Shown: piece by piece, positions 4,341 through 63,764 of the stretch | Layout of the letters: the number at the start of each line of letters is the position of its first letter | How positions within the stretch are numbered: the first letter of the stretch is position 1 | Assembly (NCBI GenBank): GCA_021773435.1 | Contig: JAJFKC010000026.1 | Coordinates: 40,108-104,107, forward strand | DNA from: Porticoccaceae bacterium | Lineage (GTDB): Bacteria; Pseudomonadota; Gammaproteobacteria; Pseudomonadales; Porticoccaceae | Length of the DNA: 64,000 nucleotides | Reading direction: 5' to 3' | Notes under the pieces: model-generated | What the model was told of the DNA's origin: nothing | The model's input: the letters and a program-made list of their open reading frames with translations, nothing else | Databases searched by the model: none | Made by a program: the position numbers and the translations under genes

Positions 4341-4364
4341 TGGGTAATTTCTGTGATTTCATTG

Positions 4365-5006: not shown

Positions 5007-5011
5007 TGTTT

Positions 5012-6118
5012 CTATGCTTTTAAGTTCACTACATCGATTAAAGCCGCGACTAATTTACAATTCTCTTCTTCTGTACGACTGGCAATCCTGAGGTAACGGT
5101 CAGAATCGGGTTGAGTTTTACCTGAGCAGTCCTTTATGTACATGTTATGTTCAACAAATAATTTTTTCATAATTTCCGGTGCGCTTTGCACAGTATCTGG
5201 CAGGCGACAGAAAATGTAATTTGCATCTGGCTTGAAAACCGTCATACCTTTTACAGCACAAAGTTTTGTATAGAGGCTGTCTCTGTCAGCTCGAACCTGT
5301 TTGCAGCTTTCAATAAACTCATCTTTGTAATCAGGCAAAATCCGCAGAAACTCTTCGGCGAAACCGTTGATATTCCAGATGTGTACGCCATTTCTAACGG
5401 CCTGTGTAAATTCTGAATTCGCTGACAACATGTAACCAATCCTGAGCCCACAGATCCCGTAGGCCTTGCTCATGCTTTTGAAAATAGCCATATTCGGATA
5501 ATTTTCGATTTCTCGTTCCAGGCTTATTTGAGCAGGATTTTCTGCAAAATCCAAAAATGATTCGTCAATAATCAGAATGCAATTATGAGTTTCAAGTTTC
5601 TTTGCAAGGCGAATGAGATCGGCCTTGGAAACGAGCATAGATGTTGGATTATTCGGTGTAACCACGACAGCGACATCAGCTTTTACTCTCATCGCTTCGG
5701 CAGCAAATTTATCCACATCCAACTGGAAGGATGGAAATTCAAGTGGAAACTCAACGACTTTACCTGACGGCGCTGCATTGGCATATTCATTAAAAGAAGG
5801 CACGGGAACGATTAATTTACCCGCTATATGACCGGATACTATTTTTATTAATTCTGCAGCTCCGTTTCCCACAACAATTCTTTCGGCGGGTTGGTCAATT
5901 ACTTTGCCAACAAGGTTGGCAAGGGCATCTTGTGCCACCGGATAATTCAGAACAAGATCATGAATTTGATCTTTAAAGTTTGTGAAGATAGCCTCAGGCG
6001 GGAAATAAAGATTATAAAGATAGGCATGGTCTATAAAATCATGCCTATAGTAACCACCATGTTGCTTAGAGATAAATTCGTATTTTTCAGATTGAGTCTT
6101 GTAATTATTTTGCGACAC
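5012..6118 (-). CDS. PLP-dependent class I/II aminotransferase-fold enzyme (HisC/CobD-like; aminotransferase or phospho-amino-acid decarboxylase)
   Basis: The SMSKAYGICGLRIGY Schiff-base lysine motif and the TPNNPT motif are present. The window also holds a canonical hisC at 34582-35643, so this is a paralog with another role. Confidence 0.8.
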   Translation of the reverse strand: MSQNNYKTQSEKYEFISKQHGGYYRHDFIDHAYLYNLYFPPEAIFTNFKDQIHDLVLNYPVAQDALANLVGKVIDQPAERIVVGNGAAELIKIVSGHIAGKLIVPVPSFNEYANAAPSGKVVEFPLEFPSFQLDVDKFAAEAMRVKADVAVVVTPNNPTSMLVSKADLIRLAKKLETHNCILIIDESFLDFAENPAQISLEREIENYPNMAIFKSMSKAYGICGLRIGYMLSANSEFTQAVRNGVHIWNINGFAEEFLRILPDYKDEFIESCKQVRADRDSLYTKLCAVKGMTVFKPDANYIFCRLPDTVQSAPEIMKKLFVEHNMYIKDCSGKTQPDSDRYLRIASRTEEENCKLVAALIDVVNLKA

Positions 6119-6971
6119 TTAAGGCTTCTGCTGCTTTTTTTGCAGGGATTACGTCATTGCTTAATGGAGTGTCAAGAAAACGCGGCGCTGAAAGAGGAAC
6201 AGTTTTTACATCCATGTACTTATCTGATAAAAATAGTTTCTCTGCTATTGCCAAATCGGCAAGAGTGTCTATTTCATACCAAGGCTTGCCGTCAAAAGAG
6301 ACACTTTCAAAAGAGAGACTGCCATCGACAATCATTTGTGCAAATACGGTTTCGTAATAATCATTTACTTTGCCATCTGAAATAGACTTGTCTAATCTTT
6401 GTACAATCCCATTCCAGGACTTAAGTGAAATGCTGTAAATATTCACAGTTTTGTATTTTATCTCACCAAAAGAATCTGCCTTGTCTGCCAAAAATGCTTT
6501 AACTTTTTTAGACTTATTGATAGTTACGCTCGTCCCATTCATCCAGGGCTGCAACCTTGCGGCAGCTAGTCTGTCGGGATAGAGCATGTCGTCCAGAAGC
6601 GATTCATCAAAAACAAGATCACTTTCGAGTAAGAGAAACGGCTCACTGATAACTTTACGTGCCATCCAGAGAGAATAGATATTATTGGTAGACTTATATA
6701 AGGGGCTGAAAATATATTCGACTTTTATGCCACCCATCTGATCACCCAAAAAATCTTTTATGTAATTTTCAAGATATCCTGTAACCACAACCAGCCGTTT
6801 GAAACCATGCTGATTCAGAATGTTGATCATCCGTTCAAGTATTGATATGCCATTGACTATTGTCAGACATTTTGGAGCGTTCTGAGTTAAGGGGTATAGG
6901 CGGGAGCCTGTTCCGGCGGCGAGAAGTAGTGCGGTGCTTATCCGTTTTTTATCCTGGTGCCCATGCTTCAA
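6105..6971 (-). CDS. LicC-like nucleotidyltransferase (CTP:phospho-alcohol cytidylyltransferase family)
   Basis: An N-terminal LLLAAGTGSRLYPLT loop, then KSTNNIYSLW and WYEIDTLADL, as in LicC/PntC-type cytidylyltransferases. Overlaps the downstream PLP-enzyme gene by 14 nt. Confidence 0.8.
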   Translation of the reverse strand: MKHGHQDKKRISTALLLAAGTGSRLYPLTQNAPKCLTIVNGISILERMINILNQHGFKRLVVVTGYLENYIKDFLGDQMGGIKVEYIFSPLYKSTNNIYSLWMARKVISEPFLLLESDLVFDESLLDDMLYPDRLAAARLQPWMNGTSVTINKSKKVKAFLADKADSFGEIKYKTVNIYSISLKSWNGIVQRLDKSISDGKVNDYYETVFAQMIVDGSLSFESVSFDGKPWYEIDTLADLAIAEKLFLSDKYMDVKTVPLSAPRFLDTPLSNDVIPAKKAAEALSVAK

Positions 6972-13789: not shown

Positions 13790-14033
13790 TCCTCTAATCC
13801 GTGATCTCAGCGCTAATATTCCACCACACAATACCCTGTGGTACATTACGCGCCTTGAGTTCAAACGGCCCACTGAAGTAGAAATTGAGCCTGCTGAAAA
13901 TTAGCCATCGAGCTTAGTAAAGACTGATCGGCACATATACGAAGAAACCTGTTAGTGGCTTTTCCTAACGGGTTTTCTGTTGGCGCTAACTTCCATTATT
14001 TTTATAAACGAATTTGACTTTAGGGAAACAACT

Positions 14034-14513
14034 ATGACCTTAGACGCTAGAGAGTTTCGCGATGCCATGGGCTGCTTTGCCACCGGTATTACAGTTGTCA
14101 CGGCAAAAAGTAACGACGGTGAGAAAGTCGGCTGTACAGCCAATAGCTTTTCATCGGTATCCCTTGACCCGCCGCTGGTGCTCTGGGCCGTCGCCAAAAA
14201 CGCCAACAGCTACGACGCCTTTATGGAAGCTAAGCATTTTGCCATCCACGTACTCCATGCCGGCCAGGAAAATGTCTCACGTCTGTTTGCCACTAAAGAT
14301 GTCGATAAGTTTAACGAAATCGGCTGGACTGAAAGCCAGGACGGCACTCCACTCCTGGACGATTACAGTGTTCGTTTAGAGTGCACCACAGAACATATCT
14401 ATGAGGGTGGCGATCACGTCATTATTGTTGGCCGCGTTTTTGAAATGGATAACCCCGATGTTGAACCGCTGGGTTTTTATCAGGGCAAATACGCCAAAAT
14501 AGTCACCGAATAA
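14034..14513 (+). CDS. Flavin reductase (HpaC/NtaB-like, FMN-binding split barrel)
   Basis: FRDAMGCFATGITVVTA...GCTANSFSSVSLDPPLVLW. The ATG at 14034 is preferred over the track start at 13980. Confidence 0.85.
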   Translation: MTLDAREFRDAMGCFATGITVVTAKSNDGEKVGCTANSFSSVSLDPPLVLWAVAKNANSYDAFMEAKHFAIHVLHAGQENVSRLFATKDVDKFNEIGWTESQDGTPLLDDYSVRLECTTEHIYEGGDHVIIVGRVFEMDNPDVEPLGFYQGKYAKIVTE

Positions 14514-14606
14514 ACTTCAAATAATTAGCGAATAAAGAGAGCGTCAGCGAAACCAGCAACGACCTAGACAAATTAACGTACAGGCAATCTGTTCGGGGAA
14601 ACCAGC

Positions 14607-15602
14607 ATGAGCGAGTCATTTTCAGCATTGGTCATCAACAAAGATGATAACGGCGTCAGCGCTTCTGTCGAACAGCTCCAGCTAAGCGACTTGCCCGACG
14701 AAGAAGTCCTGGTTGATGTCGCCTACTCCACGGTTAACTACAAAGACGGTTTGGCTATTACCGGATCAATGCCCATTATCCGCAATTATCCCATGGTTGG
14801 CGGTATCGACCTGGCGGGAACAGTTATCGAATCACGCAACCCGGAATTTAAAGCCGGTGATCGGGTACTCGTCAATGGTTACGGGCTAAGCGAACAGTAC
14901 TGGGGTGGCTACAGCCAGAAACAGCGCCTCAAAGCCGAATGGCTGGTACGTATTCCCGATGCGTTTTCCCTCGAAGAAGTCACCGCCATAGGTACTGCCG
15001 GTTACACCTCTATGCTCTGCGTGATGGCCATTCAGGATTGGGGCATTAAGCCCCAAGACGGGCCTGTGCTGGTCACTGGCGCTGCCGGTGGCGTCGGTTC
15101 AGTCGCTGTCATGCTGCTGGCCAAACTGGGTTATCAGGTGACCGCTTCGACAGGACGTGTCGATGAAGCTCGGGGATTTCTGGAAAAACTCGGCGCTTCT
15201 GAAATTATCGCCCGAGCAGAGCTGGCCCGTGATCCCAAACCCATGGAAGGCGAAACCTGGGCGGCGGTGGTTGACACCGTTGGCGCCAACACGCTGGCTA
15301 CAGCCATTGCTCAAACCAAATACGAAGGCATTGTTACTGCCTGCGGTCTGGCCGGTGGTGTTGATCTACCCAGCAACGTCATGCCCTTTATTTTGCGCGG
15401 CGTCACCTTACGCGGTATAGATTCTGTAATGGCGCCCCTGCCACGCCGACAACGGGCCTGGGATGCTCTCGCCGAGCTGGTCGATCACAAATTGCTCGCT
15501 GAAATTTACACTGTCGAACCTCTGGCCAACGTCCCTCAATTAGCGACCGATATTCTAGCCGGGAAAATAAAAGGCCGAGTGGTGATTGATAACAATGCCT
15601 AG
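14607..15602 (+). CDS. YhdH/AcuI-type NADPH-dependent oxidoreductase (MDR superfamily, acrylyl-CoA reductase-like)
   Basis: VAYSTVNYKDGLAITG...VLVTGAAGGVGSVAV...GKIKGRVVI. Confidence 0.85.
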   Translation: MSESFSALVINKDDNGVSASVEQLQLSDLPDEEVLVDVAYSTVNYKDGLAITGSMPIIRNYPMVGGIDLAGTVIESRNPEFKAGDRVLVNGYGLSEQYWGGYSQKQRLKAEWLVRIPDAFSLEEVTAIGTAGYTSMLCVMAIQDWGIKPQDGPVLVTGAAGGVGSVAVMLLAKLGYQVTASTGRVDEARGFLEKLGASEIIARAELARDPKPMEGETWAAVVDTVGANTLATAIAQTKYEGIVTACGLAGGVDLPSNVMPFILRGVTLRGIDSVMAPLPRRQRAWDALAELVDHKLLAEIYTVEPLANVPQLATDILAGKIKGRVVIDNNA

Positions 15603-15714
15603 CAGGCTGGAGACAAGCCAATTGAGTGGCCGCTGTCGCATTCATCCATCGACGCAACTCTTCTAAAAAAAGTTAACGCTCGTATTCTTAGAAGGCTCTA
15701 TTAGGAATACCACC

Positions 15715-16836
15715 ATGAAGTTTAATCTCTTTGTTTATTGTACCGTCGGCCGTCGGGAAGAACTCGAAGCTGGCATGGCTGGCAAAGATGCCGACCGCTA
15801 TCGCCGGATGCTAGGCGAGCTAGGTGAAACAGCCCAACTGGCCGATGAGGTCGGCTATTTTGGTTTCGGCCATCCCGAACACCATCTTCAAATTGAAGGT
15901 ATGGAGGCCTCCAACGACCCCTGCCTGATGTCCATGTGGCTGGGCCAAAACAGTAAAAACCTGCGCATTATTCCTTGCGGCTTTGTCTCCACGACTAATA
16001 ATCCGCTGGTGACTGCCGAGAAAATCGCCACCCTTGATTGCATGTTGGATGGCCGTCTCGGCGTCGGTATGGTGCGCGGCTATCAAGCCCGATGGCTCGA
16101 TAACTTTCGCATCCAACCGCAATTGAAAGCGGTCGGCCCGTGGAATGCCAAGAGCCAGGTCGATGAAGATAACCGCGAATATTTCGCTGAGTTCGTCGAT
16201 ATTGTGACCCGCGCACTGCGAGAAGACACCTTCTCCCATCACGGCAAATACTGGGATTTCCCGTCGGTGGGTTTTCACAATCCACACGACCATCCGGTTT
16301 ATACCGACTATGGTCAGGGTGTATCGGCAGATATGAAAGTCGATGAGATCGGTATTGCGCCACGGCCCTTCCAGAAAGAAATCCCCCTCTACGGCGGCTT
16401 TTCCCACAGCTTGCGCTCGGCAAAATTCTGGGCCCAGCATAAAGGTCGACCTATCGTGCTCGCTGACAATATCGACTTTCTCAAGCTGCTATGGGCCGAA
16501 TGGGGTGATGAAGCAGATCGTTTAGGCATCGCCTACCAACCCGGCGAACAGGCCTGCTGGGGTGGCATTATGGTCTGTGCTAAAACCGATGCGCTGGCCC
16601 AGGAATGGTATGGCAAGATGGCCTGGCTCTGGGACACCTGGATGAAACCCTTTGGTCAGGGCGTACCCGAATTACTAGTCGGCTCGCCCGATACGCTCAA
16701 ACGTCGCATTGAAGCAGTCGGCAAAGAGATTCCCCTGGACGAGGTTTTCCTGCTCCAGCCCCAGGGCGTGCTGGAGCCGTCCAAGCTCAATGCTTCTATC
16801 GAGTTGTTTGCCAAAGAAGTTATGCCCGCGTTTTAA
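15715..16836 (+). CDS. LLM class flavin-dependent oxidoreductase
   Basis: 373 aa with a luciferase-like pattern (GYFGFGHPEHH..., LGVGMVRGY). Confidence 0.75.
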   Translation: MKFNLFVYCTVGRREELEAGMAGKDADRYRRMLGELGETAQLADEVGYFGFGHPEHHLQIEGMEASNDPCLMSMWLGQNSKNLRIIPCGFVSTTNNPLVTAEKIATLDCMLDGRLGVGMVRGYQARWLDNFRIQPQLKAVGPWNAKSQVDEDNREYFAEFVDIVTRALREDTFSHHGKYWDFPSVGFHNPHDHPVYTDYGQGVSADMKVDEIGIAPRPFQKEIPLYGGFSHSLRSAKFWAQHKGRPIVLADNIDFLKLLWAEWGDEADRLGIAYQPGEQACWGGIMVCAKTDALAQEWYGKMAWLWDTWMKPFGQGVPELLVGSPDTLKRRIEAVGKEIPLDEVFLLQPQGVLEPSKLNASIELFAKEVMPAF

Positions 16837-26629: not shown

Positions 26630-28861
26630 CTAGTGAATATCTTTCCAGTATTCTCGATTCAGCAGCACAACCCAGATAAGCAAAAATGCCAGGAATAGTA
26701 GTACATAGACGCCCGTCTGACGGCTTTCTTCAACCACAGGGTTTGCCAGATAAGACAGGAAGTTGACGAGATCATAGACAGCTTCATCATATTCGACCGG
26801 ACTTAACTCGCCTTTAGTCAACAATTCATAGTTGCCGCAGGGATCGTCATTGAGAGGTTCGCTGGTCAGCGGGTCGACCTTAATGCCGCCATTCGTAGCC
26901 AGGGTTGGGCCATCCGTGCAGCCAGGTAAACCCTGCAAATCAAGCAGCGCGTGGGGCATGCCCACATCTTTAAATACTTTGTTATTGACGCCAATAGGTC
27001 GGCTTTCGTCGGCGTAGAAATTTCGCAAATAAGTATAAACCCACTTCCCGGATCGGGCTCGCGTCACCAACGTTAAGTCTGGTGGTGGCGCACCAAACCA
27101 GTCCTTGCCGGAACGTTCAGACATTGATATCTCCATCAGCCCACCGATTTTTTGGCCGCTAAAGACGAGGTTGTCCATCATCATGCCGTGGGGAATATCT
27201 AAATCGTCGGCTACGCGTTCCCACCGTGAGTAGGCAGCGGCGTGGCACCCCATGCAGTAATTGACAAATATTTTCGCGCCGTTTTGTAGAGATTCCTGGT
27301 CGGTAGCATCGGCCTCAAAGGCATCACAGCTAATGGCGCCACAGTCATGGTTAGCTTCCGACCCAGCCGCTTTGAGAGGCAAAATAATCAGCGCGAGGAC
27401 AATGAACAGGACACTCAACGAGCGCCAGAAACCCATGCCGCCGTCCATGGTAATGCGATCCGGTTCCGGTTTTGATATGTTTCGTTCAACTAACCAGGGC
27501 AGTACCAGAAAAAACAGGCCCAGCACAATAGAGCAGATTCTTACCACTATGGATAGTTCGACGCCCTCTTTGGGCATACCTAAGCCAAAGAAGCCAATGG
27601 CAAAAATCCCGGTGAGTAGATAGCGCAGTATGGATACCCCACCTTTCTTCACCGACCAAACCGGCATGGTTATAAAGAATGCGAAATACATGACCATGGT
27701 TATTTGGGCGAGCAGGGTTCGATCATCAGTCGGCGCCTTAACACCGAGAACTCCGAGGATCACAAAGGATGCAGCAAACAGCAGCAGCATTATTCCAGTA
27801 ATGCGACCTTTATATCGGAACGATTTTTCCTTACTTTTATCCAGCCAGGGCAGGACGAATAAAATAGCTATCGCAGCCGCCATGGCCAGAAAGCCCATGA
27901 ATTTAGCCGTTAATGGGCCAATCTCAAAAGTGACCGCCCGCAACATGGAGTAAAACGGCGTGAAATACCAAACCGGTGCAATATGCTCAGGTGTTTTTAA
28001 TCGATTTGCCTCTTCGAAATTGGCGTACTCAATGAAGTAGCCACCCATCTCTGGCATAAAGAAAATAATGAAGCAGAACACAAACAGGAAAACCGCCACC
28101 GGCACCAGATCGTGCACGGTGTAATACGGATGGAACGGAATGCCATCCAGAGGAATGCCATTTTCATCCTTATCCTTTTTAATTTCGACGCCGTCTGGAT
28201 TATTGGAACCAACTTCGTGCAGGGCCAACAAATGCAACACCACCAAACCCAATAAAACGATGGGTACGGCGACGACATGTAAAGCAAAAAATCGATTCAG
28301 GGTGATGCCAGAGATCAAATAATCACCTCGCACCCATTCGACGATACCTTCGCCGATAACCGGAATTGCGCCGAATAGAGAGATGATCACCTGAGCACCC
28401 CAGTAGGACATTTGTCCCCAGGGCAGCACATAACCGAAGAAACCTTCGGCCATCAGGGCCAGGAAAATAGCCATGCCAAATAGCCAGACCAGCTCACGGG
28501 GTGCTTTGTAAGAGCCATAGAGCAAGCCACGGAACATGTGTAGATATACCACGAGAAAAAAAGCTGACGCCCCGGTGGAGTGCATATAGCGCAGTATCCA
28601 ACCGAAATCTACATCACGCATAATGTATTCGACCGATGCAAATGCACGCTCGGCGGAGGGTTCATAATTCATGGTCAGCCAGATACCGGTGACAAACTGG
28701 TTAACCAACACCAGCAACGACAGAACCCCAAAGAAATACCAGAAGTTAAAGTTCTTCGGCGCGTAATACTTCGCCATGTGAGTATCCCACGCCCGCTGCA
28801 CCGGTAAACGTGCATCAATCCAGCCCCATAGGGCGCCTAACCAGGCCACGATCAACTTCAT
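26630..28861 (-). CDS. petBC: Cytochrome b / cytochrome c1 fusion protein of the bc1 complex (single 743-aa reading frame)
   Basis: The N-terminal ~420 aa are cytochrome b (…FNFWYFFG…, PEWYF-equivalent APVWYFTPFY). Two extra hydrophobic helices follow. Then comes a signal-peptide-like helix (FWRSLSVLFIVLALIILPLKAAG). The rest is a c1 domain with the CMGCH haem motif and a C-terminal anchor (VYVLLFLAFLLIWVVLL). No stop codon separates the parts. Confidence 0.85.
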   Translation of the reverse strand: MKLIVAWLGALWGWIDARLPVQRAWDTHMAKYYAPKNFNFWYFFGVLSLLVLVNQFVTGIWLTMNYEPSAERAFASVEYIMRDVDFGWILRYMHSTGASAFFLVVYLHMFRGLLYGSYKAPRELVWLFGMAIFLALMAEGFFGYVLPWGQMSYWGAQVIISLFGAIPVIGEGIVEWVRGDYLISGITLNRFFALHVVAVPIVLLGLVVLHLLALHEVGSNNPDGVEIKKDKDENGIPLDGIPFHPYYTVHDLVPVAVFLFVFCFIIFFMPEMGGYFIEYANFEEANRLKTPEHIAPVWYFTPFYSMLRAVTFEIGPLTAKFMGFLAMAAAIAILFVLPWLDKSKEKSFRYKGRITGIMLLLFAASFVILGVLGVKAPTDDRTLLAQITMVMYFAFFITMPVWSVKKGGVSILRYLLTGIFAIGFFGLGMPKEGVELSIVVRICSIVLGLFFLVLPWLVERNISKPEPDRITMDGGMGFWRSLSVLFIVLALIILPLKAAGSEANHDCGAISCDAFEADATDQESLQNGAKIFVNYCMGCHAAAYSRWERVADDLDIPHGMMMDNLVFSGQKIGGLMEISMSERSGKDWFGAPPPDLTLVTRARSGKWVYTYLRNFYADESRPIGVNNKVFKDVGMPHALLDLQGLPGCTDGPTLATNGGIKVDPLTSEPLNDDPCGNYELLTKGELSPVEYDEAVYDLVNFLSYLANPVVEESRQTGVYVLLFLAFLLIWVVLLNREYWKDIH

Positions 28862-29460
28862 GATGTTGCCTCCGGATCGATACCGATCACGACAACAGTG
28901 TCACTCTCGTAGTTATGGGGTGGAATTTTCAGATTGGTCGGCGCCGGTACGTCTTTATAAACTCGACCCGCCAGGTCAAATTTAGAGCCATGGCATGGGC
29001 AGAAAAAACCGCCCAACCAGGCCTCGCCACCTAAATCAGCGGCACCCACCTCAGGCCGATACTTTGGTGCACAGCCAAGATGTGTACACAAGCCGAGCAT
29101 AATCAGAAACTCCGCCTTAATAGCACGGGTGACCGGATCAACATATTCAGGTTGATCCGAATCTTCTGACTCAGGGTCTTTCACGGTGTCGCGAAGGTTT
29201 TCAAGAGATTCGAGCGCCTGTGCGGGTCGCCGGACAATATAGACCGGCTGGCCACGCCACTCCTCAATCATCATTGCACCGGGCTCTATTTTGCCAATGT
29301 CGATCTTAACCGGAGCACCTGCTGTCTTTGCCCTGGCACTGGGAAACCAGGAGCCAACAAATGGAATAGCGGCTCCACCAACCCCCACTGCACCGACCGC
29401 ACAGGTCATCCCCGTCAAGAAGCGCCGACGCTTCTGGTTAACCACACCGTCATTGCTCAT
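28858..29460 (-). CDS. petA: Ubiquinol-cytochrome c reductase Rieske iron-sulfur subunit
   Basis: Tat-like RRRFL signal plus CTHLGC and CPCHGS cluster motifs. Overlaps the cytochrome b start by 4 nt. Confidence 0.95.
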   Translation of the reverse strand: MSNDGVVNQKRRRFLTGMTCAVGAVGVGGAAIPFVGSWFPSARAKTAGAPVKIDIGKIEPGAMMIEEWRGQPVYIVRRPAQALESLENLRDTVKDPESEDSDQPEYVDPVTRAIKAEFLIMLGLCTHLGCAPKYRPEVGAADLGGEAWLGGFFCPCHGSKFDLAGRVYKDVPAPTNLKIPPHNYESDTVVVIGIDPEATS

Positions 29461-52887: not shown

Positions 52888-54264
52888 TTATTTGCCCAGC
52901 CGTCGAATAGCCGCCCGAGTCAGATATTTATCGTAAAGATCATCGGTATTCACCTTGGTTTTATGGCCACCGGAAATCTGTTTGACCTGCTCTAATCTGG
53001 TCATACGATTGGTTTGAATATTATGGGCATGAACCCGCGTCCACGATGCGTAGGGGTGTTTGCCATCATAGAAAGTGTTGGTGCCATCGGTATAAAGGGA
53101 ACCCGCGCCATCGAAAGAGCGAAACATTTCCCCACGTCGATCAAAAGAGACCATAGAAATAGGTGCCAATGTCCGGGCATCAAACCACACGCGCTTCTTG
53201 CTGATGGGGGCACGGGGGAATTTGACAGGCTCCGCATCGACGACAATCGCTTCAGGCACTAACTCCACATCCATATCCCAAAAGGTATGGCCGTGGGGGC
53301 CGCCGTGGGTGGTGTGCTCCCAGTTCTCATGGGCCGGTTTCCAGCTGCGGGAAACCGCTGCCAGGGCAGGACCCCGACCAACAATTTTATAATTCCCCCA
53401 GGTCAGGAAGGGATCCCCCGCCGTCCAGGCATCAGATAAATATAACGACGAGCCAGGAATTAAAGGCTCGAAACGCTGATTACTGGGGAATCGCCGCACA
53501 CGCTTAAAAGCCGGTAAATATCCGGTCAAATCTGGGAACTGGCGTTGATCATAGTGCCAAACATTAAGGAAAGAAGTACCGCTAATATCATTCGGTTTAA
53601 CAAAAAATACCGATTGATAGCGCAGCTTGTCTTCATGGTCAGTCCAGTAAGGTTTCGGCTCAAGCACCAATCGACCCATTGCTGTTAGCTCAGCCCAGCA
53701 CAGCTCATAGTTATATTCTATTTTTCCGCTCGGCCCGACATCGGTTTCTTTAATCGCATAAAAAGACGCATCGTGGCGACCCCAACTAAGGGTGATACCA
53801 GCAAATACTTCGAGCGCTGTTTTGGGATCAGGAAAGGGATTGCCGCCTATCCATGGCTTCCCTTCGCGGGTCACCACATTGCCATCGGCATCAAACATTG
53901 CCTGGCCCTGATTGCGCAAAGTCGCCTCGTTATATTCCCAGGGGCTAAGCTGCATGATGTCACTGGTGGTATCAATTATGCCCATTTGCCGCCCCATCTG
54001 TGCCACCTGGGTGTAGCGAATCGGGTCTAGCAGGTCTTTGACGTGCTCAACATTGTCGGCATTAATCATATCGCCGGTTTTGACCTTGCCACCGGTATAA
54101 GCCTCGATAGACATCAGTTCATCCGGGTAGACCCCATCGATACTGCCGGTTTTGGCAATCGCAGGCCACAGCGGAGCGAGCACGCCAGTAGCCAGTACAC
54201 CCCTGCTCATCTGCATCATGAAATGCCGGCGGCTGAAGTCAGGATCGTACTTACGAATTCTCAT
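52888..54264 (-). CDS. DUF1329 family protein (LolA-like fold family) with a twin-arginine signal
   Basis: SRRHFMM followed by a hydrophobic stretch and AIAK. DUF1329-type segments are GGNPFPDPKTALEV and AFKRVRRFPSNQRFEP. Starts 18 nt after the preceding gene. Confidence 0.7.
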   Translation of the reverse strand: MRIRKYDPDFSRRHFMMQMSRGVLATGVLAPLWPAIAKTGSIDGVYPDELMSIEAYTGGKVKTGDMINADNVEHVKDLLDPIRYTQVAQMGRQMGIIDTTSDIMQLSPWEYNEATLRNQGQAMFDADGNVVTREGKPWIGGNPFPDPKTALEVFAGITLSWGRHDASFYAIKETDVGPSGKIEYNYELCWAELTAMGRLVLEPKPYWTDHEDKLRYQSVFFVKPNDISGTSFLNVWHYDQRQFPDLTGYLPAFKRVRRFPSNQRFEPLIPGSSLYLSDAWTAGDPFLTWGNYKIVGRGPALAAVSRSWKPAHENWEHTTHGGPHGHTFWDMDVELVPEAIVVDAEPVKFPRAPISKKRVWFDARTLAPISMVSFDRRGEMFRSFDGAGSLYTDGTNTFYDGKHPYASWTRVHAHNIQTNRMTRLEQVKQISGGHKTKVNTDDLYDKYLTRAAIRRLGK

Positions 54265-54282: not shown

Positions 54283-56592
54283 TTACCCGCAACCAAACTC
54301 TTCTCGGCGCTGATTAAGGCGCGCCTTCTCATCAGTAGACCCAAGATGCTGATAGCGTCGAGCATACGTAATGGCGGCACACAGGTCTTCCTCTCTGTCT
54401 TCTAGTTGAGTTAATAGTTCAATTCGGTGGCCCATGGCCTCTCGCCACCGCGGTGCACCGTCTGGCTGTGCACCGGTAATTTTTGCCCAGGCACGTTCCG
54501 CGGTAAACAGATCAGCGGTGGCTTCAGCGGTCTCGGCATATGCGGTCCAGGCATCGCCTGAATTGGGAAACTCCTGGACCATAGCTTTAGCCATGTCGAA
54601 CGCTCCACCCCCATTACCCACCTTAATAGCAGCGCGAATTTGTAACAAACGCAGCTGCCGCTGATCGTGGGTTTGGCCGACCAGCGCTGGATAAAATGCT
54701 TCTGTCAGGGGCACTAACTGGGCAAACTCCCCGCGTTTTTCCTTGGCGACTAAAAACCGGTATACCTCCCGCTGCGTCGCGCTATCCATACCTGGCTTAT
54801 CGCCATTTTTTACTGTCAGACCAGCTATATAAGAGCGCAACTGGGCCTGGTCGATCTGATCCAGAACACGCAGTTTTGACCACATCAATACTTGTTTAAC
54901 ATTGGCATCCAACAACAATTTTTGATCAGCCTTTGCCTGGGCGGCTTTCCCCTGGGAGTAAATGGCATCGATACCCTTAAGCACGCCCGGCAGATCCCGC
55001 CCCAGCACCGTCCTCATCTGCAAACTTACCGCACGCACCCAGAGTTTTTTCTGAACATGTCTCGGCAATTCTTTTAAGCTGGTTAATACTTCTTCGGCCT
55101 TGCGCTGTTGTTTTCCTATTGCGCCATTTTCGATGGCACCATTAAATTCATTGATCGCCCTTTTAAGCTGGGAAAAAGCAATGGAGCCTTTGAGCTTCGA
55201 ATCCTTTTTCGCTAGCCGCAGGTGCTTCTTTGCGCGGTCAGGATTAAAACTCAGCTGCCCAAGCAGTAAATGCGCAGAAGCAATATCCGGGTCATCGCCA
55301 TTTTTGGTCAGGAAATACTCCGCCGCGTTCAGCGCCTGTGTTCGATTTCTGTTGCTATTTTTCTGCTCGTAAAGCGACTGCGCGACCAGGAACGAAAATT
55401 TAGGCAAGGCCTTGACCACAGCCTGGGGAAGATCACCTTCGCCACGAAGTTTTTCAGCAACATTATAAGCATCGTGAAACTGGCCTATTTTTAACAGCGC
55501 TACGGCGTAGTGATATTGTAGGGTGCGCAAATTGATCAGCAAATCCAGGCCGCCATTACGCGTAAACTCCCGATACTTGAGCACGGTTGTATCGTATTGT
55601 TGGTAGGCGTAGGCGAACTCCGTATCGACGTAGAAGGAAAATACCCCGATATCCTGGCCGACAATTTCATCGCGATAGGACATGATTCGATTAACTAAAC
55701 TACTATTAAGATAGCCCTCTGCAATCAGGCGTTTTAGACGTTCTCCAGCCGCGATTTTGCCAGTCTGCGTATCGCGATGCTGTTGCAGTAGCGCAAAAGC
55801 CTCTTCTAGATAAACATTGGCCAGGCTCGGTGTCAGCGGTTCTGCCTTAATGGCCTGAGTTGGCCGAATCTCACCGCGGCGAATGGCCAGCACCGTTAAT
55901 TCGGCGTCGGCTATTTTACGCACCGGATTATCGGGATCACTCACCAGGGCCTGAACAAGGCGGCTAAAGCGTTTCTCTGCCAGAGCCTGTTCGCCGCGAG
56001 CCGCCGCCACATAGCCCATACCCAGCCAGCTGCCGTAGACGATACCGGGATAAAGAATACGTACTGAAGATGCCTGAAAACCACTCTCGGCTTTATTCAG
56101 CCAGCTTATTTGGTCGCGCTCCCCCTCCTTGCTGTGCGCAATCCCCAACATGGCCCAGGCCTGCCAATAGCTGAATGCCGACAAGGCGTAATTAATATCG
56201 TGCCAAACATCTGAGCGATACAGTTTTTCAAGACTGGCTTCATTCTCGTTGGTAGTGCTTTCCAGGGCCCGCACCTTATCTCGGCATCGCGCTCTCAAAC
56301 CATCGGCATTATTTATCAGCTGCTCATAATCTTTTTTGCTGCCGCCTATTTCTCGCGTTTTCGATACCAGGTTGCCGTAGCTATCGGCGATCAAAACGAA
56401 ATCACCCGCGCTCAATGAGTTGATGTCCTGGTCTGACAAAATCATTAATCGCGTCGCGAGCTTGTTGACCTCGGCAATTGCCGATACGGCAAGCGTTTGT
56501 TGTTTAAATTCGGTGAGCGAGATCGCGCCATAAACCGATGCACTGGAAAGTGTTGCAAGCAAGCATAAACTCAGTGTCAGAGTACGTAACAT
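54283..56592 (-). CDS. Large secreted helical-repeat (TPR-like) protein of unknown function
   Basis: 769 aa with a Sec signal (MLRTLTLSLCLLATLSSASVYGA). The rest is dominated by Ala/Leu/Tyr-rich helix-turn-helix periodicity. I saw no catalytic motif. Confidence 0.6.
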   Translation of the reverse strand: MLRTLTLSLCLLATLSSASVYGAISLTEFKQQTLAVSAIAEVNKLATRLMILSDQDINSLSAGDFVLIADSYGNLVSKTREIGGSKKDYEQLINNADGLRARCRDKVRALESTTNENEASLEKLYRSDVWHDINYALSAFSYWQAWAMLGIAHSKEGERDQISWLNKAESGFQASSVRILYPGIVYGSWLGMGYVAAARGEQALAEKRFSRLVQALVSDPDNPVRKIADAELTVLAIRRGEIRPTQAIKAEPLTPSLANVYLEEAFALLQQHRDTQTGKIAAGERLKRLIAEGYLNSSLVNRIMSYRDEIVGQDIGVFSFYVDTEFAYAYQQYDTTVLKYREFTRNGGLDLLINLRTLQYHYAVALLKIGQFHDAYNVAEKLRGEGDLPQAVVKALPKFSFLVAQSLYEQKNSNRNRTQALNAAEYFLTKNGDDPDIASAHLLLGQLSFNPDRAKKHLRLAKKDSKLKGSIAFSQLKRAINEFNGAIENGAIGKQQRKAEEVLTSLKELPRHVQKKLWVRAVSLQMRTVLGRDLPGVLKGIDAIYSQGKAAQAKADQKLLLDANVKQVLMWSKLRVLDQIDQAQLRSYIAGLTVKNGDKPGMDSATQREVYRFLVAKEKRGEFAQLVPLTEAFYPALVGQTHDQRQLRLLQIRAAIKVGNGGGAFDMAKAMVQEFPNSGDAWTAYAETAEATADLFTAERAWAKITGAQPDGAPRWREAMGHRIELLTQLEDREEDLCAAITYARRYQHLGSTDEKARLNQRREEFGCG

Positions 56593-56594
56593 GG

Positions 56595-57710
56595 CTACAA
56601 ACCCTCCAGCAACAGCGCCATTTCACGGGCAAACTGACCACCCATAATTAGCGACATTAAATGTCGGGTTATTTTCACATCGCCATCCATAGTCGAGGCG
56701 ATACCGCCGCCTGCTTCGGCGAGCAACTGAAAATCGAGCATGGGTTTATCGGAATAAAACGCCCGATTAACAGGTCGGCCCAGCATCGATTCCAGCAAGG
56801 CCGGATTCGCATCGCGACTCACATCTAAAGCTGAAATTTGCCCGCCGTCCTGAGCGAATGCTTTGCTGATGGATAACAAATTAGAAATTGCATTTTTGTG
56901 GGGAGGTGCATCGCCCAGCACAATAATGATCTTTCTGGCACCCAGTCGCCAGGCACTCTGATCAATACCCACCTGGACACCATCGAAAACCGCCTCCTGG
57001 TGACTACCACCACCCTCAGCCATCAATCCACCGAGAAAACGCACGAGCTTCGTTAAGCTAAAAGTCAGCGTTTGTAATTTGGTGACGTAACCCGGCTCAC
57101 CGTAATCGCGATAAGCCACCACGCCAAAACGAGACACTGGCACCAGCAGACGTATGGCATCGACGATATCGACAATTCGGCTATTGACCTCGGTCAGCAC
57201 CCAGTCCATCGAGCCTGTCGTATCAACGACAAAAACAACGTCAAGGCCGGTTTCGCGCAGGCCCTGAACATAGGCGGCAAATCGATTCGCCGAATCACTG
57301 AGGCCGGTGCCGATACCCGTGCCATAACCAGCCACGCCCTCACCATCGGTAACCGGAGTATTGGACAGCAGCGGCGCGGCGAAACCCCCGGAGCTATGCC
57401 CACCTGCTGCGGCCTCCATCGCCAGATTGACATCCGGTGGGGGTGGAGCTAATGCAGAGGTCGGCACCAACACCGGCGGCGGTTCAAACTCGATACTTTC
57501 TTCAAACACTAGCTCTTCTTTTTCCGGTAGTTCAGTCAGATCAAGCATGACCTCAATGGCCTGAGTCGAGTCGTCGTTTTTGGCAAGAGGGTCGAGCATC
57601 GAACGGGAGGCCTGCCAGGATAGTATTAGATGTATCACTAGAGACAGACACAGCAGGCCAATCCAGAGGCTGGCTGACTTAAGCCATTTGAGCAAGGGAA
57701 GCATGTTCAA
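56595..57710 (-). CDS. Membrane-anchored protein: N-terminal TM helix, acidic/proline-rich spacer, C-terminal von Willebrand factor A domain
   Basis: TM helix SLWIGLLCLSLVIHLIL. Spacer …EFEPPPVLVPTSALAPPPPD…. VWA core VVFVVDTTGSMDW (MIDAS DxTxS variant), …GGGSHQEAV…, IIIVLGDAPPH. Confidence 0.7.
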   Translation of the reverse strand: MNMLPLLKWLKSASLWIGLLCLSLVIHLILSWQASRSMLDPLAKNDDSTQAIEVMLDLTELPEKEELVFEESIEFEPPPVLVPTSALAPPPPDVNLAMEAAAGGHSSGGFAAPLLSNTPVTDGEGVAGYGTGIGTGLSDSANRFAAYVQGLRETGLDVVFVVDTTGSMDWVLTEVNSRIVDIVDAIRLLVPVSRFGVVAYRDYGEPGYVTKLQTLTFSLTKLVRFLGGLMAEGGGSHQEAVFDGVQVGIDQSAWRLGARKIIIVLGDAPPHKNAISNLLSISKAFAQDGGQISALDVSRDANPALLESMLGRPVNRAFYSDKPMLDFQLLAEAGGGIASTMDGDVKITRHLMSLIMGGQFAREMALLLEGL

Positions 57711-57731: not shown

Positions 57732-58148
57732 TCAGAGTACGTTGTCATTATTCAAGGTAATCAACGCGACTCTGGACACCTGAAGGAATTTAAAGTCTTC
57801 GAGAATCGGGATAAAATAAAGAGCGGGTGTGCCGCCATCGGCACGCAAGCGCACTTTGCTGGGAATAGCCAAACCATCAGCTCGAAAGCCATCGGCCCAC
57901 TCAGGCACACTGGTTTTATCGCCCTGCCATAACAGCACACCTTCCCGTGTTAATTCCAGCTCAACCATCCCCGCCTCAGTCAGGGTCTCGCTAAGCGATA
58001 AGGGCGGCGATATATTCTGGTTAAAACTTTCAGAAAAGGTACCGACCACGAGAAAAAATAGCAGCAGCAAAAAAGTCATATTTATCACCGGCAGCATATT
58101 GCCCTCTGCGTGCGTGCCAACCTGTCTGTCTTCCTGTAAATTAAACAT
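57732..58148 (-). CDS. ExbD/TolR-like protein, divergent paralog (TM Asp replaced by Asn)
   Basis: The start MFNLQ… at 58148 is preferred over the track start at 58286, which would overlap the upstream gene. TM segment MLPVINMTFLLLLFFLVV aligns with the ExbD (T/L)P(F/L)IDV(M/L) motif, with N in place of D. Confidence 0.65.
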   Translation of the reverse strand: MFNLQEDRQVGTHAEGNMLPVINMTFLLLLFFLVVGTFSESFNQNISPPLSLSETLTEAGMVELELTREGVLLWQGDKTSVPEWADGFRADGLAIPSKVRLRADGGTPALYFIPILEDFKFLQVSRVALITLNNDNVL

Positions 58149-58227: not shown

Positions 58228-58650
58228 TCAAGACTTATCTGCCCCTGACTTATTCTTGTCCAGCGGCAAGATCTGAATTTTCTCAAGATGATGAGTTTTT
58301 AATTGATCCATGGCGCTCACCAACAACTGTAAGGGTGCAATATCATGCACTTCAATAACCACCGCCGTTTCGGGGACAAACTGCTTACCGTCCAGGTAGA
58401 CACCTAGATCCGACAGAGCAATAGCTTCGCCCTGGATCCACAACTTGCCATTTTCAAACAGCTGCAAACTTAACAATTCGCCAGCACTGGAGCTTTGCTC
58501 TTTCTTTTCGGGCACATTAAAGCCCAGCTCGCGGAATTCGCTAAAACTGGTTTCCAGAATAAAAAACACCAGCAGGATAAAAACCAGATCGGCCAGCGGC
58601 GTAAGGCTGATACGCCGCAGTTTCTTTTTATGATGAGATTGCAGTTGCAC
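58228..58650 (-). CDS. exbD: Biopolymer transport protein ExbD/TolR
   Basis: ISLTPLADLVFILLVFFIL contains the conserved TM Asp. 140 aa. Confidence 0.85.
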   Translation of the reverse strand: MQLQSHHKKKLRRISLTPLADLVFILLVFFILETSFSEFRELGFNVPEKKEQSSSAGELLSLQLFENGKLWIQGEAIALSDLGVYLDGKQFVPETAVVIEVHDIAPLQLLVSAMDQLKTHHLEKIQILPLDKNKSGADKS

Positions 58651-58687
58651 GATGACAGACTATAAACGTCGTTAGCTAAAAACGCCG

Positions 58688-59305
58688 CTAATTAGCGGCT
58701 GATAAGTTTGCCGTAAACAGGCGTGTTAGCTGGTCTTCCATATTGCGGCGAATATTGGTGGCGCGGCTTTCGAGCATCGCGTGAATCATGGCAAAGGGGA
58801 TAGCAACGGTTAAGCCAACAGCTGTGGTTAACAGGGCTTCCCAGATACCGCCCGCAAGCACCCCCGTGTCAGCACCACCGCCCTCATTGGCAAGACTGAA
58901 AAACACATCGATCATGCCCAATACGGTACCCAGCAAACCCAACATTGGCGACAGGTAGGCGATAAGTTCAATGAAGGAGTTGAGGCCGTTTACCCGGGTC
59001 ACAATTTGCTGGCCCTGGCGGGTCAACTCTTCGCGGATTTTGTCTTCACCATAAGATTTGTCGCTGAGCCAGGAAACACCGTTGCGAAGCAAATCACTAA
59101 ACGGCGATTTATCACCCTCCAACGCCGCTAAGGCGGACTCTGCTTGACCATTGACCCAGTGGCTAAGAGCCTTTTCGGCCTGCTGTTGCTTACCTTTGGA
59201 ATACGCTCGGTACTGCAGCACTTTGTACAAAACAATCGCTAAGCCAACCACAGACAATGCAATGAGAACGAGCACCACTGGCCCGCCCAACTCTAATAAT
59301 TCCAT
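58688..59305 (-). CDS. exbB: MotA/TolQ/ExbB proton-channel protein
   Basis: 3-TM layout with [14 protein letters not shown] and [15 protein letters not shown]. Confidence 0.9.
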
Positions 59306-61457: not shown

Positions 61458-62624
61458 CTAGCTGGGCAATCTCAACACTGCCTTAGCGAGAATATTACGC
61501 TGAATTTCATTACTACCACCATAGATAGTGGTGGGTCGTGACGCGATAAATTCGCCAGCAGCGCGCACTACTCCGTCAACGGTATCGATACCATCCTGAA
61601 TACCACCATGCTCACTGGCAGCTTCCATCATTAGCTCGGTAACCCGTTGCTGGGTTTCGGTGTTCCAGACTTTCAACATGGACACTTCCGGGCCAATATT
61701 GCCGCCGCGTTTAAGCACTTCAACAAAACGCTTATAGGCCGCAAACAGATCTTCAATATCCAATTGCAGGCGCGTATAACGCTCGACAAATAGTGGGTCT
61801 TTAAACAGACCCACAGATTTCGCCATCGACTTTAGCCTCGACATAGCGAGAATGGCGAACTTGGGGCTGCCGATAAATATGCGCTCGTGGCCTAACAGTG
61901 CCTTGGCAATTGTCCAGCCGTTGTTTTCGCCACCCACCACACTAGCGACCGGTACTTTGACGTCATCAAAAAACACTTCGGCGAACTCGTCGTGCATACC
62001 CAGGTTGACGATTGGTCGCACGGTGATGCCCGGCGTATCGAGAGGCACCAGCAAAAACGTTATGCCCTCCTGTTTTTTGCCGTCTTTATTGGTGCGAACC
62101 AACATGAAAATCATGTTGGCATCCATGGCTAGAGTGGTCCAGGTTTTATGGCCATTGACGATGTAGTGATCGCCATCACGCACTGCCGAGGTCTGCAGGG
62201 ACGCCAGATCGGAGCCCGAACCCGGTTCAGAATAGCCCTGGCACCATATATTCTCACCCGCTAATATCTTCGGCAGGTAGTGTTCCTTTTGCTCCTGAGA
62301 ACCATGCTGAATTAATAAGGGTCCAACCATGGTAATGCCCATATCCGGCGTTCTGCCCACACCATAGGTCTCGCCGACGTCCATGAAAATTAGCAATTTG
62401 TTGGCATCAAGGCCCATGCCGCCATATTCCGCAGGCCAGGCCGGGGTTAACCAGCCTTTTTTCGCCAGGGTTAAATACCAGTCACCAACCTGGTCCCAAT
62501 GCATGCGGTTGGGCGGAAAGCGCAGCTCGTCGGGGTAGTTTTCGACGTACCAGTCATGAACCATGGCACGAAATTCGTCATCTTCCATCGCGTTGTATTC
62601 ATTGCTTGCTTGCAAATTCGTCAT
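61458..62624 (-). CDS. Acyl-CoA dehydrogenase
   Basis: 388 aa with an ACAD pattern (…CQGYSEPGSGSDLAS…, …GGSNEIQRNILAK…). Confidence 0.9.
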   Translation of the reverse strand: MTNLQASNEYNAMEDDEFRAMVHDWYVENYPDELRFPPNRMHWDQVGDWYLTLAKKGWLTPAWPAEYGGMGLDANKLLIFMDVGETYGVGRTPDMGITMVGPLLIQHGSQEQKEHYLPKILAGENIWCQGYSEPGSGSDLASLQTSAVRDGDHYIVNGHKTWTTLAMDANMIFMLVRTNKDGKKQEGITFLLVPLDTPGITVRPIVNLGMHDEFAEVFFDDVKVPVASVVGGENNGWTIAKALLGHERIFIGSPKFAILAMSRLKSMAKSVGLFKDPLFVERYTRLQLDIEDLFAAYKRFVEVLKRGGNIGPEVSMLKVWNTETQQRVTELMMEAASEHGGIQDGIDTVDGVVRAAGEFIASRPTTIYGGSNEIQRNILAKAVLRLPS

Positions 62625-62636
62625 TGGTTGTCGCCC

Positions 62637-63764
62637 TTACAAAGTCAGTTCGGCATAGCGGGCACGGTGCGCCGCAGCATTGCCCAACCAGGAAGCCAGA
62701 TACATCGCCTTTTTGAAATACAGACCAATATTGGCCTCATCTGTATAACCGATACCCCCATGTAGCTGGATGGCGCTTTTGGTGATTTGCAGCGCAGCAT
62801 CGGAACACCGGGCCTTGACCTGACTGGCCGCTACGGCTCGCCCTTCGGCTGAGACCTCGCCGTCGAACAGGCCAATGGTTTGCAGCACCACAGAACGGGA
62901 AATTTCTGACAGAATAAACAGATCAACCATCTTATGTTGAAGGGCCTGAAAGCTGCCGATGGGCTTATCAAACTGAACACGCTGAGTCGTGTAGTCAACT
63001 GTGATTTCAAGAGCACGGGTCATGACACCCAGCAATTCAGCACTGGCGGCAACACGGCCTGTATCAAGGGCCGCTGCAAGAATCTGTTCGGCCAGCGCGA
63101 CGCTAGCGACCTTATCCCCGACCGCCACTTGATCAAAACTCAGCTGACCATAAAAGCCACCATCGACCCGCTGCTCGTAATCAATACTTAAACCAGTCGC
63201 ATCTTTATTGACCAGATACAATTCAGTACCCTCGGCGCTAGCCGCCGAGACGATAAAATCATCAGCGCCACCGGCATCGGGCACAAATATTTTCTTACCG
63301 CTTAGCTTGCCATCGACCACACTGACCTGTTCCGCCTTAACGCTCATGCTGCCACGGGCCTCCTGCCAGGCCAGTGCTGGTTTCCATTCGCCAGCCACCA
63401 GGGCGGGCAAACGATCTTTTTTGACAGCCTCGTTATCACCGTTCACCAACACGGTCGCGGCAATCACAGCAGTAGCCACAAAGGGCGCAGGCACCAGACC
63501 TTTGCCCAGCTGGATCAGAACCGTATGAAGATCATCGAAACCCAGGCCGATACCACCAAACTGCTCGGGGATCAAAAACCCCAGCCAACCCAGCTCAGCC
63601 ATTTCCTGCCAGGTGTTCTGGTCAAAACCCGGCTGCACGAAACGACTGGCTCGGGCTTTTTTTAATTCTTCATCCTCGCCGATGAAGGCAACAGCGCTAT
63701 CCTGAATCAGCACCTGCTGCTCACTCAGGACATCAATACGTGACTGCAAACTAATATCTTCCAC
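62637..63764 (-). CDS. Acyl-CoA dehydrogenase family protein (partner subunit type)
   Basis: 375 aa with an ACAD fold (…QFDKPIGSFQALQHK…, …QLHGGIGYTDE…). Lies 12 nt upstream of the second ACAD gene. Confidence 0.85.
   Translation of the reverse strand: MEDISLQSRIDVLSEQQVLIQDSAVAFIGEDEELKKARASRFVQPGFDQNTWQEMAELGWLGFLIPEQFGGIGLGFDDLHTVLIQLGKGLVPAPFVATAVIAATVLVNGDNEAVKKDRLPALVAGEWKPALAWQEARGSMSVKAEQVSVVDGKLSGKKIFVPDAGGADDFIVSAASAEGTELYLVNKDATGLSIDYEQRVDGGFYGQLSFDQVAVGDKVASVALAEQILAAALDTGRVAASAELLGVMTRALEITVDYTTQRVQFDKPIGSFQALQHKMVDLFILSEISRSVVLQTIGLFDGEVSAEGRAVAASQVKARCSDAALQITKSAIQLHGGIGYTDEANIGLYFKKAMYLASWLGNAAAHRARYAELTL

Follow-up and report, generated by a model that had tools for sequence, protein, structure and literature searches.

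To our knowledge, TonB and TolA were long the only known carriers of inner-membrane proton-motive energy to the outer membrane. Here we analysed a 64,000-nucleotide stretch of a Porticoccaceae bacterium contig (JAJFKC010000026.1; hereafter the window), in which a minus-strand gene, vwa (56595..57710, starting at TTG 57710 or ATG 57704), encodes a 371-amino-acid (aa) member of the vWA force transducers. This family was defined computationally (Mol Biol Evol 2025, msaf138; PMC12204202). According to the available part of that paper, its members combine a transmembrane helix (TMH) bearing an SHLS motif, a disordered linker in which a motor box lies, a domain II that is ~100 residues long and a vWA domain at the C-terminus; their genes have tolQ-like and TPR genes and two differing tolR-like genes as neighbours; and AlphaFold 3 models show the transducer TMH bound to the motor by means of a conserved His. 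The same part cites cryo-EM work in which TonB and TolA both bind their motors via the SHLS motif.

As far as the available text describes the msaf138 transducers, the window protein resembles them in its single N-terminal TMH with the SHLS-type Ser/His, its disordered, Pro-containing linker of ~100 aa and its C-terminal vWA fold, and the composition of its operon (tolQ-like, two tolR-like and TPR genes) equals their synteny. Since this architecture was described by computation in 2025, the window protein is not categorically new. The examples in that text are mainly from the PVC group and carry the TPR gene upstream of the motor genes, whereas the order here is exbB-exbD-exbD-vwa-TPR-DUF1329. 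Two features appear to be unreported. One is that in many gammaproteobacterial relatives the module is embedded in a DUF1302/DUF1329/BNR/RND cassette: the available text of PMC12204202 mentions none of DUF1302, DUF1329, LolA and RND, and our literature search found no paper naming both DUF1329 and ExbD and none linking the module and the cassette. The other is a conserved Asp/Asn asymmetry of the ExbD pair, of which we found no mention in the literature examined, including the available part of PMC12204202.

The cassette is of the AmeABCD type, which comprises a DUF1302 outer-membrane barrel, a DUF1329 LolA-like protein, a COG4447 BNR protein and an HAE3 RND protein. Its four genes are cofit in transposon fitness screens of several bacteria (bioRxiv 072470), P. 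putida requires cassette genes on Tween 20 and fatty esters (bioRxiv 2020.07.04.188060), AmeABCD is needed for monoterpene tolerance in Castellaniella (PMC6394551), and DUF1302 is predicted to form an 18-strand barrel complexed with DUF1329 (PMC13499233). AupA/AupB of Marinobacter was considered as a candidate DUF1302/DUF1329 pair and dropped, since AupA is FadL-like according to its paper.

We consider it rather probable that the window protein is a TonB/TolA-type force transducer driven by the proton-motive force (PMF), in which a VWA domain with a metal ion-dependent adhesion site (MIDAS) replaces the usual C-terminal domain and grips an outer-membrane-proximal partner. This reading is built on the observed architecture, fold, residue conservation and gene linkage. 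An earlier, sequence-only reading of this DNA had proposed a TonB-like anchor, a periplasm-spanning linker and a VWA/MIDAS effector coupled to ExbB/ExbD, an outline now supported by the fold, the charge bias around the helix and the motor-gene linkage of the relatives.

The VWA protein: fold, anchor and linker

A scan of one genome per species yielded 159 relatives, and the best 80 loci (42−85% identity) were kept. Residue conservation was counted in an alignment of 79 relatives drawn from these 80 genome loci and the window, 78 of which have the N-terminus; the synteny denominators are the loci with enough flanking sequence. The VWA protein has 976 homologues, annotated only as "VWA domain-containing protein" or "hypothetical protein", and those named are from gammaproteobacteria, marine ones among them, recovered from metagenomes (Porticoccaceae, Halieaceae, Candidatus Reddybacter). 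This number of homologues, together with the retention of the MIDAS in 79/79 aligned relatives, indicates that vwa is a real gene. The 371-aa open reading frame (ORF) contains every string that the sequence-only reading had quoted (SLWIGLLCLSLVIHLIL, EELVFEESIEFEPPPVLVPTSALAPPPPDVN, DTTGS, GGGSHQE and LGDAPP).

The Pfam profiles VWA_4, VWA and VWA_2 matched aa 157−322 over their curated cut-offs (E ~1e-9). In a monomer model built with AlphaFold2 (AF2) on 22 homologues, a TM helix at aa 4−37 (predicted local distance difference test score, pLDDT, >90) is followed by a disordered stretch at aa 39−138 (pLDDT <50) and an alpha/beta domain at aa 140−370 (pLDDT ~85−92). The top matches of a Foldseek comparison with the PDB were all VWA domains (CMG2/ANTXR, BatB 3ibs, integrin I domains and Rpn10; probability 1.0, E 1e-9 to 1e-7); searching the PDB sequences with the family profile gave no match. 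The earlier claim of a VWA fold, for which structure prediction had been named as a check, is thus borne out by Pfam, AF2 and Foldseek, and we assign the VWA domain to aa 140−371 (56598..57293, minus strand). An extra helix at aa 136−154 precedes VWA strand 1 in the AF2 model, and its residues F144, Y147 and L151 are conserved in the alignment.

The MIDAS of this domain is formed by D163-x-T165-x-S167, S236/E239 and D267. D163, T165, S167 and D267 were kept in 79/79 relatives, in agreement with the MIDAS-type residues picked out from the sequence earlier. After the GGG loop, position 236 was S, D, T or N, and E239 was invariant (79/79). Judged by its residues, the MIDAS is complete and invariant, and it is predicted to bind metal.

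The TM anchor spans approximately aa 13−35 (57606..57674, minus strand), as delimited by the AF2 helix, conservation and an alignment on the His with the TonB and TolA sequences of E. coli K-12. It carries W16, L19, S23 and H27, the last two forming an S-x3-H pair. S23 and H27 were each invariant in all 78 relatives having the N-terminus, W16 was kept in 76/79, and the Ser/His pair is the best conserved feature of the TM helix. S23/H27 align with S16/H20 of TonB and S18/H22 of TolA. TonB H20 is the functionally critical side chain of the TonB helix. The sequence-only reading had seen no SHLS motif in the TM helix; the alignment shows that S-x3-H is present, while the L and S positions are indeed absent. 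It had also based the coupling to the motor on gene position only. The motor genes do adjoin vwa, but the coupling rests on more than position, because S23/H27 are invariant and aligned with the TonB and TolA pairs.

On the N side of the helix the flank has a mean net charge of +2.3, against −0.14 for the flank on the C side. This bias fits an N-in/C-out orientation, placing the VWA domain in the periplasm, as had been proposed, and not in the cytoplasm. The N-terminal helix is unlikely to be cleaved as a signal peptide, since no Ala-x-Ala-type site follows the helix and the S/H pair and W16 are conserved inside it.

The linker is ~100 aa long (99−107 aa in most of the 78 relatives). The earlier view of it as a proline-rich spacer of the TonB type did not hold: the mean Pro content is only ~14%, the Pro residues are restricted to PP(P) and PPPP blocks with no EP/KP repeat region, and four near-invariant motif blocks are found instead. 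The first, aa 52−56 (IEVML; 57543..57557, minus strand), is an alternating hydrophobic, motor-box-like segment with the column pattern (V/I)-E-(I/V)-x-(L/I). It lies at His+25, the same offset as ISVTMV in TonB (His+25) and close to that of IDAVMV in TolA (His+28), and the available part of PMC12204202 places the motor-box strand that binds ExbD/TolR at such a position. The second is an acidic/Pro block, L-x-F-E-E-x-I-E-F-E-P-P-x-V-L-V (aa 67−82; 57465..57512, minus strand), in which L67 (78/79), F69 (79/79), P77 (77/79), P78 (78/79) and L81 (78/79) are conserved. It is followed by the conserved block PPPPDVxLAMxAAAGG (aa 89−104; 57399..57446, minus strand), with a short helix predicted by AF2 at aa 92−101, and by a Gly-rich block (aa 123−137; 57300..57344, minus strand), in which G123, G125, G128, G132 and G134 were kept in 77−79 of 79 relatives.

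The motor operon and its neighbourhood in relatives

The vwa gene is the fourth of a six-gene minus-strand operon, in the order exbB, exbD1, exbD2, vwa, a TPR gene and a DUF1329/LolA-like gene. A promoter scan of the operon gave no excess over shuffled controls, and the operon limits are therefore drawn from gene spacing only. The first gene (58688..59305) encodes an ExbB/TolQ-like proton-channel subunit of 205 aa (Pfam MotA_ExbB, E 1.4e-28). Its NCBIfam matches to tolQ/exbB were weak, the best being tolQ, far under the cut-off; T127, E156, T160 and T161 were kept in 57−61 of 61 orthologues. A defence-system origin (Zorya and others) was rejected, as PADLOC gave no match for the VWA, TPR, ExbD and DUF1329 proteins and only weak generic MotA-type matches for ExbB.

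The sequence-only reading had placed vwa directly after two exbD genes, which is correct, and the exbB gene stands further upstream. exbD1 (58228..58650; 140 aa; Pfam ExbD, E 2e-18) has the canonical TM aspartate, D21, and exbD2 (57732..58148; 138 aa from ATG 58148; Pfam ExbD, E 3e-13) has an Asn at the TM site. D21 was found in 63/63 ExbD1 orthologues and N24, at the equivalent site of ExbD2, in 55/57. The Asp/Asn split was also present in a distant locus (L088), and the single ExbD of another (L085) has Asp. This conserved split suggests that ExbD1 and ExbD2 form an asymmetric, perhaps obligate, heterodimer, and the pair offers a natural experiment on the two proton sites of 5:2 motors. We also observed a perfect 6-bp GC-rich hairpin, GCCGCTAATTAGCGGC, spanning the exbB stop codon (58684-58699, minus strand). 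It could cut downstream expression relative to exbB, which would fit a 5:2 ratio; equally, it could be due to chance.

The fifth gene (54283..56592, minus strand) starts 2 nt after the vwa stop and encodes a putative periplasmic TPR protein of 769 aa with a Sec signal. Pfam TPR matches were weak, and the AF2 model is an all-helical solenoid (pLDDT 89.9), for which Foldseek returned only generic TPR scaffolds and no functional lead. None of its homologues is functionally named, and most have no Pfam domain on record. C738 and C768, near the C-terminus, are invariant, suggesting that they probably form a periplasmic disulfide. The last gene (52888..54264, minus strand) encodes a 458-aa DUF1329/LolA-like protein (Pfam DUF1329, E 1.6e-57, and LolA_like) whose twin-arginine signal reads SRRHFM. 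No other gene of the cluster is as conserved: its identity across loci is 60−89%, versus 42−85% for the VWA protein.

The gene order parallels tolQ-tolR-tolA-tolB-pal-cpoB of E. coli. The locus might accordingly be read as a Tol-Pal-like envelope-integrity system, with exbB/exbD1/exbD2 as TolQR, the VWA protein as TolA, the TPR protein as CpoB and DUF1329 as a TolB/Pal-like outer-membrane partner, serving outer-membrane stabilisation or lipid homeostasis. The tolQ score of ExbB, best in NCBIfam though far under the cut-off, and the lipid/lipoprotein-binding fold of the LolA-like DUF1329 protein are consistent with this assignment, as is the proposal by Price et al. that the cassette exports a cell-wall component (bioRxiv 072470). 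However, Pfam detected neither an OmpA-like peptidoglycan-binding domain nor a TolB beta-propeller in the operon, and the family was found only in metagenome-derived gammaproteobacteria, which does not fit a universal housekeeping locus. Moreover, the phenotypes of the neighbouring cassette concern hydrophobic substrates, which in P. putida are Tween 20 and fatty esters and in Castellaniella monoterpenes. We therefore regard a Tol-Pal-like role as quite improbable.

Among the relatives, ExbB/ExbD genes lie directly upstream of vwa in 57/67 loci, so that the homologues are linked to motor genes, whereas a complete lack of linkage had been named as an outcome that would speak against the sequence-only reading. 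The TPR gene is adjacent downstream of vwa in 76/76 loci, and DUF1329 follows downstream in 60/65. Within 7 kb upstream, DUF1302 was found in 35/52 loci, BNR/Ycf48-like genes in 27/52 and MMPL/RND genes in 26/52. In the fuller loci, the genes typically run RND-(DUF1329)-BNR-DUF1302-exbB-exbD-exbD-vwa-TPR-DUF1329, with the DUF1302, MMPL and BNR identities confirmed by Pfam. The exbB-exbD-exbD-vwa-TPR module stands between the DUF1302 and DUF1329 genes of the cassette in L024, L031, L038, L045-L049, L052 and L056, and likewise in L061-L067, L073, L075, L076 and L080. The window and its closest relatives (L001-L014) have the six-gene operon only. In some loci, tandem DUF1329-DUF1302 pairs (two to three copies, some fragmented) were seen just upstream of vwa (L030 and L034, within the upstream 7 kb; also L018, L021 and L022); the outer-membrane pair of the cassette is locally expanded in these lineages.

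The synteny also bears on a static function, in which the protein is an envelope tether or assembly scaffold, similar to Bat-type membrane VWA proteins or Tol-Pal accessory proteins. In such a scaffold, the MIDAS would keep the TPR protein and DUF1329 close to the inner membrane, and the ExbBD motor would power another process or serve only to localise the complex. The link of vwa to the TPR gene (76/76) is closer than its link to the motor genes (57/67), 8/67 loci have no motor genes beside the VWA-TPR pair, and some distant relatives are VWA-VWA pairs beside DUF4159 genes, where no motor is seen. In addition, VWA domains are generic protein-protein adaptors, and BatB was the second-best structural match. 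On the other hand, the S23/H27 pair is invariant even in loci without adjacent motor genes; this is the motor-contact pair of TonB and TolA, for which a passive anchor has no obvious need. The operon and the other scanned window genes include no TonB_C protein, TonB-dependent receptor or other transducer gene, and a motor operon with no other transducer would have no output. They also lack MoxR and DUF58 genes, the partners of Bat-type systems. A purely static scaffold is thus unlikely in our judgement, albeit the strongest of the alternatives that we considered.

A third alternative is a motility or adhesion transducer, with a VWA head that would link the motor with adhesion to surfaces in the manner of the gliding adhesin CglB. 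In Myxococcus, this VWA adhesin is coupled to a TolQR-like motor, and the available part of PMC12204202 tentatively suggests such a function. However, one N-terminal TM helix and a linker of only ~100 aa provide no route to the cell surface, gliding and secretion genes are absent from the operon and the scanned window genes, and the gammaproteobacterial context is one of DUF1302, DUF1329 and RND. This makes a motility or adhesion function very improbable.

The TMH-linker-VWA design extends beyond these loci. A wide profile search of 1.84 billion representatives gave 14252 matches at E<=1e-3, which are VWA domains generally, and 337 at E<=1e-30. Among the best 150 representatives, 99 had the VWA strand-1/MIDAS motif starting >100 aa from the N-terminus. 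S-x3-H within an uncharged segment upstream of the VWA domain was found in 70 of these 99, versus 21 of 1980 shuffled N-terminal regions used as a control, indicating that TMH(S-x3-H)-linker-VWA is a broad, coherent design. In distant relatives (profile E ~1e-52 to 1e-64), the genes for the VWA protein, ExbB, ExbD(s) and a long TPR protein are present and differently ordered, with no DUF1302/DUF1329. The distant TMH(S-x3-H)-VWA relatives in L086 and L087 form tandem VWA-VWA pairs, followed in L087 by three DUF4159 genes, and no motor gene is seen beside them; the genomic context of the design varies.

Proposed mechanism and the wider window

In the force-transducer complex that we infer, ExbB, probably a pentamer, would enclose the ExbD1/ExbD2 heterodimer, with Asp as the proton carrier in one subunit and Asn in the other, to give a proton-driven 5:2 motor. 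The single TM helix of the VWA protein would dock outside ExbB through S23/H27, the strand-like segment ~25 residues past the His would contact the periplasmic ExbD domains, and the ~100-residue linker would span the periplasm. At its far end, the MIDAS metal site may grip an acidic residue of an outer-membrane-proximal partner, for which the candidates are the 769-aa TPR scaffold, the LolA-like DUF1329 protein and the DUF1302 barrel that goes with it, and rotation of the motor would then pull on the gripped partner. The identity of the target is the most conjectural element of this scheme. Most likely it lies within the co-encoded set (the TPR protein, DUF1329 and DUF1302), which would imply a role in an AmeABCD-like system for hydrophobic compounds. 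The gene context in the relatives suggests that the work done is the gating or assembly of such a system (HAE3 RND, BNR, DUF1302 and DUF1329).

Several observations weigh against this mechanism. In the TM helix, the full SHLS motif is not found, as A34 (His+7) stands for the L and M38 (His+11) for the S, and the His is ~15−16 residues from the cytoplasmic Lys/Arg, versus 9−12 in TolA and TonB. The AF2 monomer model predicts no strand in the linker, including aa 52−56. Regarding the gene context, DUF1302 is directly upstream of vwa with no intervening motor genes in 8/67 loci, and neither DUF1302 nor motor genes are directly upstream in 2/67. Of the AmeABCD-type cassette, the 64-kb window has only DUF1329, with no DUF1302, BNR or RND homologue. 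The cassettes of Shewanella, Pseudomonas and Castellaniella were described without ExbBD, VWA and TPR genes, so that the motor is not generally required for AmeABCD-type cassettes. Finally, PMC12204202, in its available part, states that no deletion phenotype or function is known for the vWA transducers.

A more far-reaching version of the force-transducer reading is that the protein is a third PMF transducer after TonB and TolA, whose integrin-like MIDAS grip energises a DUF1302−DUF1329 (AmeAB-type) outer-membrane channel for hydrophobic compounds by means of an asymmetric ExbB5−ExbD(Asp)/ExbD(Asn) motor. We put this forward tentatively, as it is more doubtful than the general reading. If true, hydrophobic compounds would be moved across the outer membrane by an energised transport independent of TonB, and the long-unexplained DUF1302/DUF1329/BNR/RND cassette would gain a function. 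If the link to the cassette holds, it would explain how some marine hydrocarbon-associated gammaproteobacteria power the movement of oily compounds across the outer membrane. In integrins, the MIDAS makes a force-bearing, metal-mediated grip on an acidic ligand residue, and the same link would bring an integrin-like force-bearing metal-ion bond into a bacterial motor system. Testable targets follow from the locus and its 80 relatives, namely the TPR solenoid and the Tat-exported DUF1329 protein and, in many genomes, the DUF1302 barrel, the BNR protein and the HAE3 RND pump.

The other scanned genes of the window are ordinary chromosomal ones, including petABC, hisGDC, murA, mlaC, lptCAB, rpoN and an AcrB/HlyD pair, together with luciferase-like monooxygenases and acyl-CoA dehydrogenases. 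petB and petC are fused into a single 743-aa ORF (26630-28861, minus strand) with the cytochrome b N- and C-terminal domains and a cytochrome c1 domain, and the Rieske subunit gene (28858-29460) adjoins it. Two acyl-CoA dehydrogenase genes lie upstream of exbB (61458-63764, minus strand), with their 3' ends ~2.2 and 3.3 kb off and GFA and LysR genes between; in the distant relative L088, two acyl-CoA dehydrogenase genes (3818-6216) are adjacent to exbB. These neighbours are a possible further tie to lipid or hydrophobic-substrate metabolism. The window also has three luciferase-like flavin monooxygenase genes, at 587-2497 and 13980-16836 on the plus strand; one of them, in the second block, has genes for a flavin reductase and a zinc alcohol dehydrogenase beside it. 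This gene set could serve the oxidation of alkanes or other hydrophobic compounds.

Comparison with known systems

The window protein shares with the Ton system an N-in single-pass anchor with S-x3-H, an alternating hydrophobic segment at His+25, a periplasm-spanning linker, and exbB and exbD genes alongside. It differs from TonB in that it has no TonB_C domain (no Pfam/NCBIfam match) and carries a VWA/MIDAS domain instead, and in that EP/KP repeats and the L and S of SHLS are absent. Its operon contains two unlike ExbD genes, one with Asn, and no TonB-dependent transporter gene is nearby. The likeness to Tol-Pal lies in a parallel operon logic (motor, transducer, periplasmic partner and TPR protein) and in the S-x3-H common to TolA. 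Neither the long helical domain II nor domain III of TolA is present, however, and the operon lacks tolB and pal.

The available part of msaf138 describes a second family, the TPH-vWA proteins, which have TolQ only, an Asp-bearing trans-pore helix, no SHLS and no exbD/tolR nearby. We rejected this identity for the window protein, since its TM helix has no acidic residue and has S-x3-H, and two exbD genes are present. A Bat-type (BatA/BatB)/MoxR identity was likewise rejected, as neither partner gene of that system was found and the likeness to BatB is one of fold only.

With the VWA domains of integrin alpha-I, CMG2 and BatB, the window protein shares the fold and MIDAS geometry, as detected by Foldseek, at an identity of only 12−18%. 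In contrast to these domains, MIDAS loop 1 is D-x-T-x-S and not D-x-S-x-S, an invariant E239 follows the GGG loop, and the VWA domain is, in our reading, N-terminally tethered to an inner-membrane motor. With regard to the AmeABCD-type cassette, the window operon ends in DUF1329, and many relatives carry the entire cassette around the motor-vwa-TPR module. Compared with the known systems, the locus thus adds the embedding in the cassette, the Asp/Asn ExbD pair and conserved linker motifs that can be tested.

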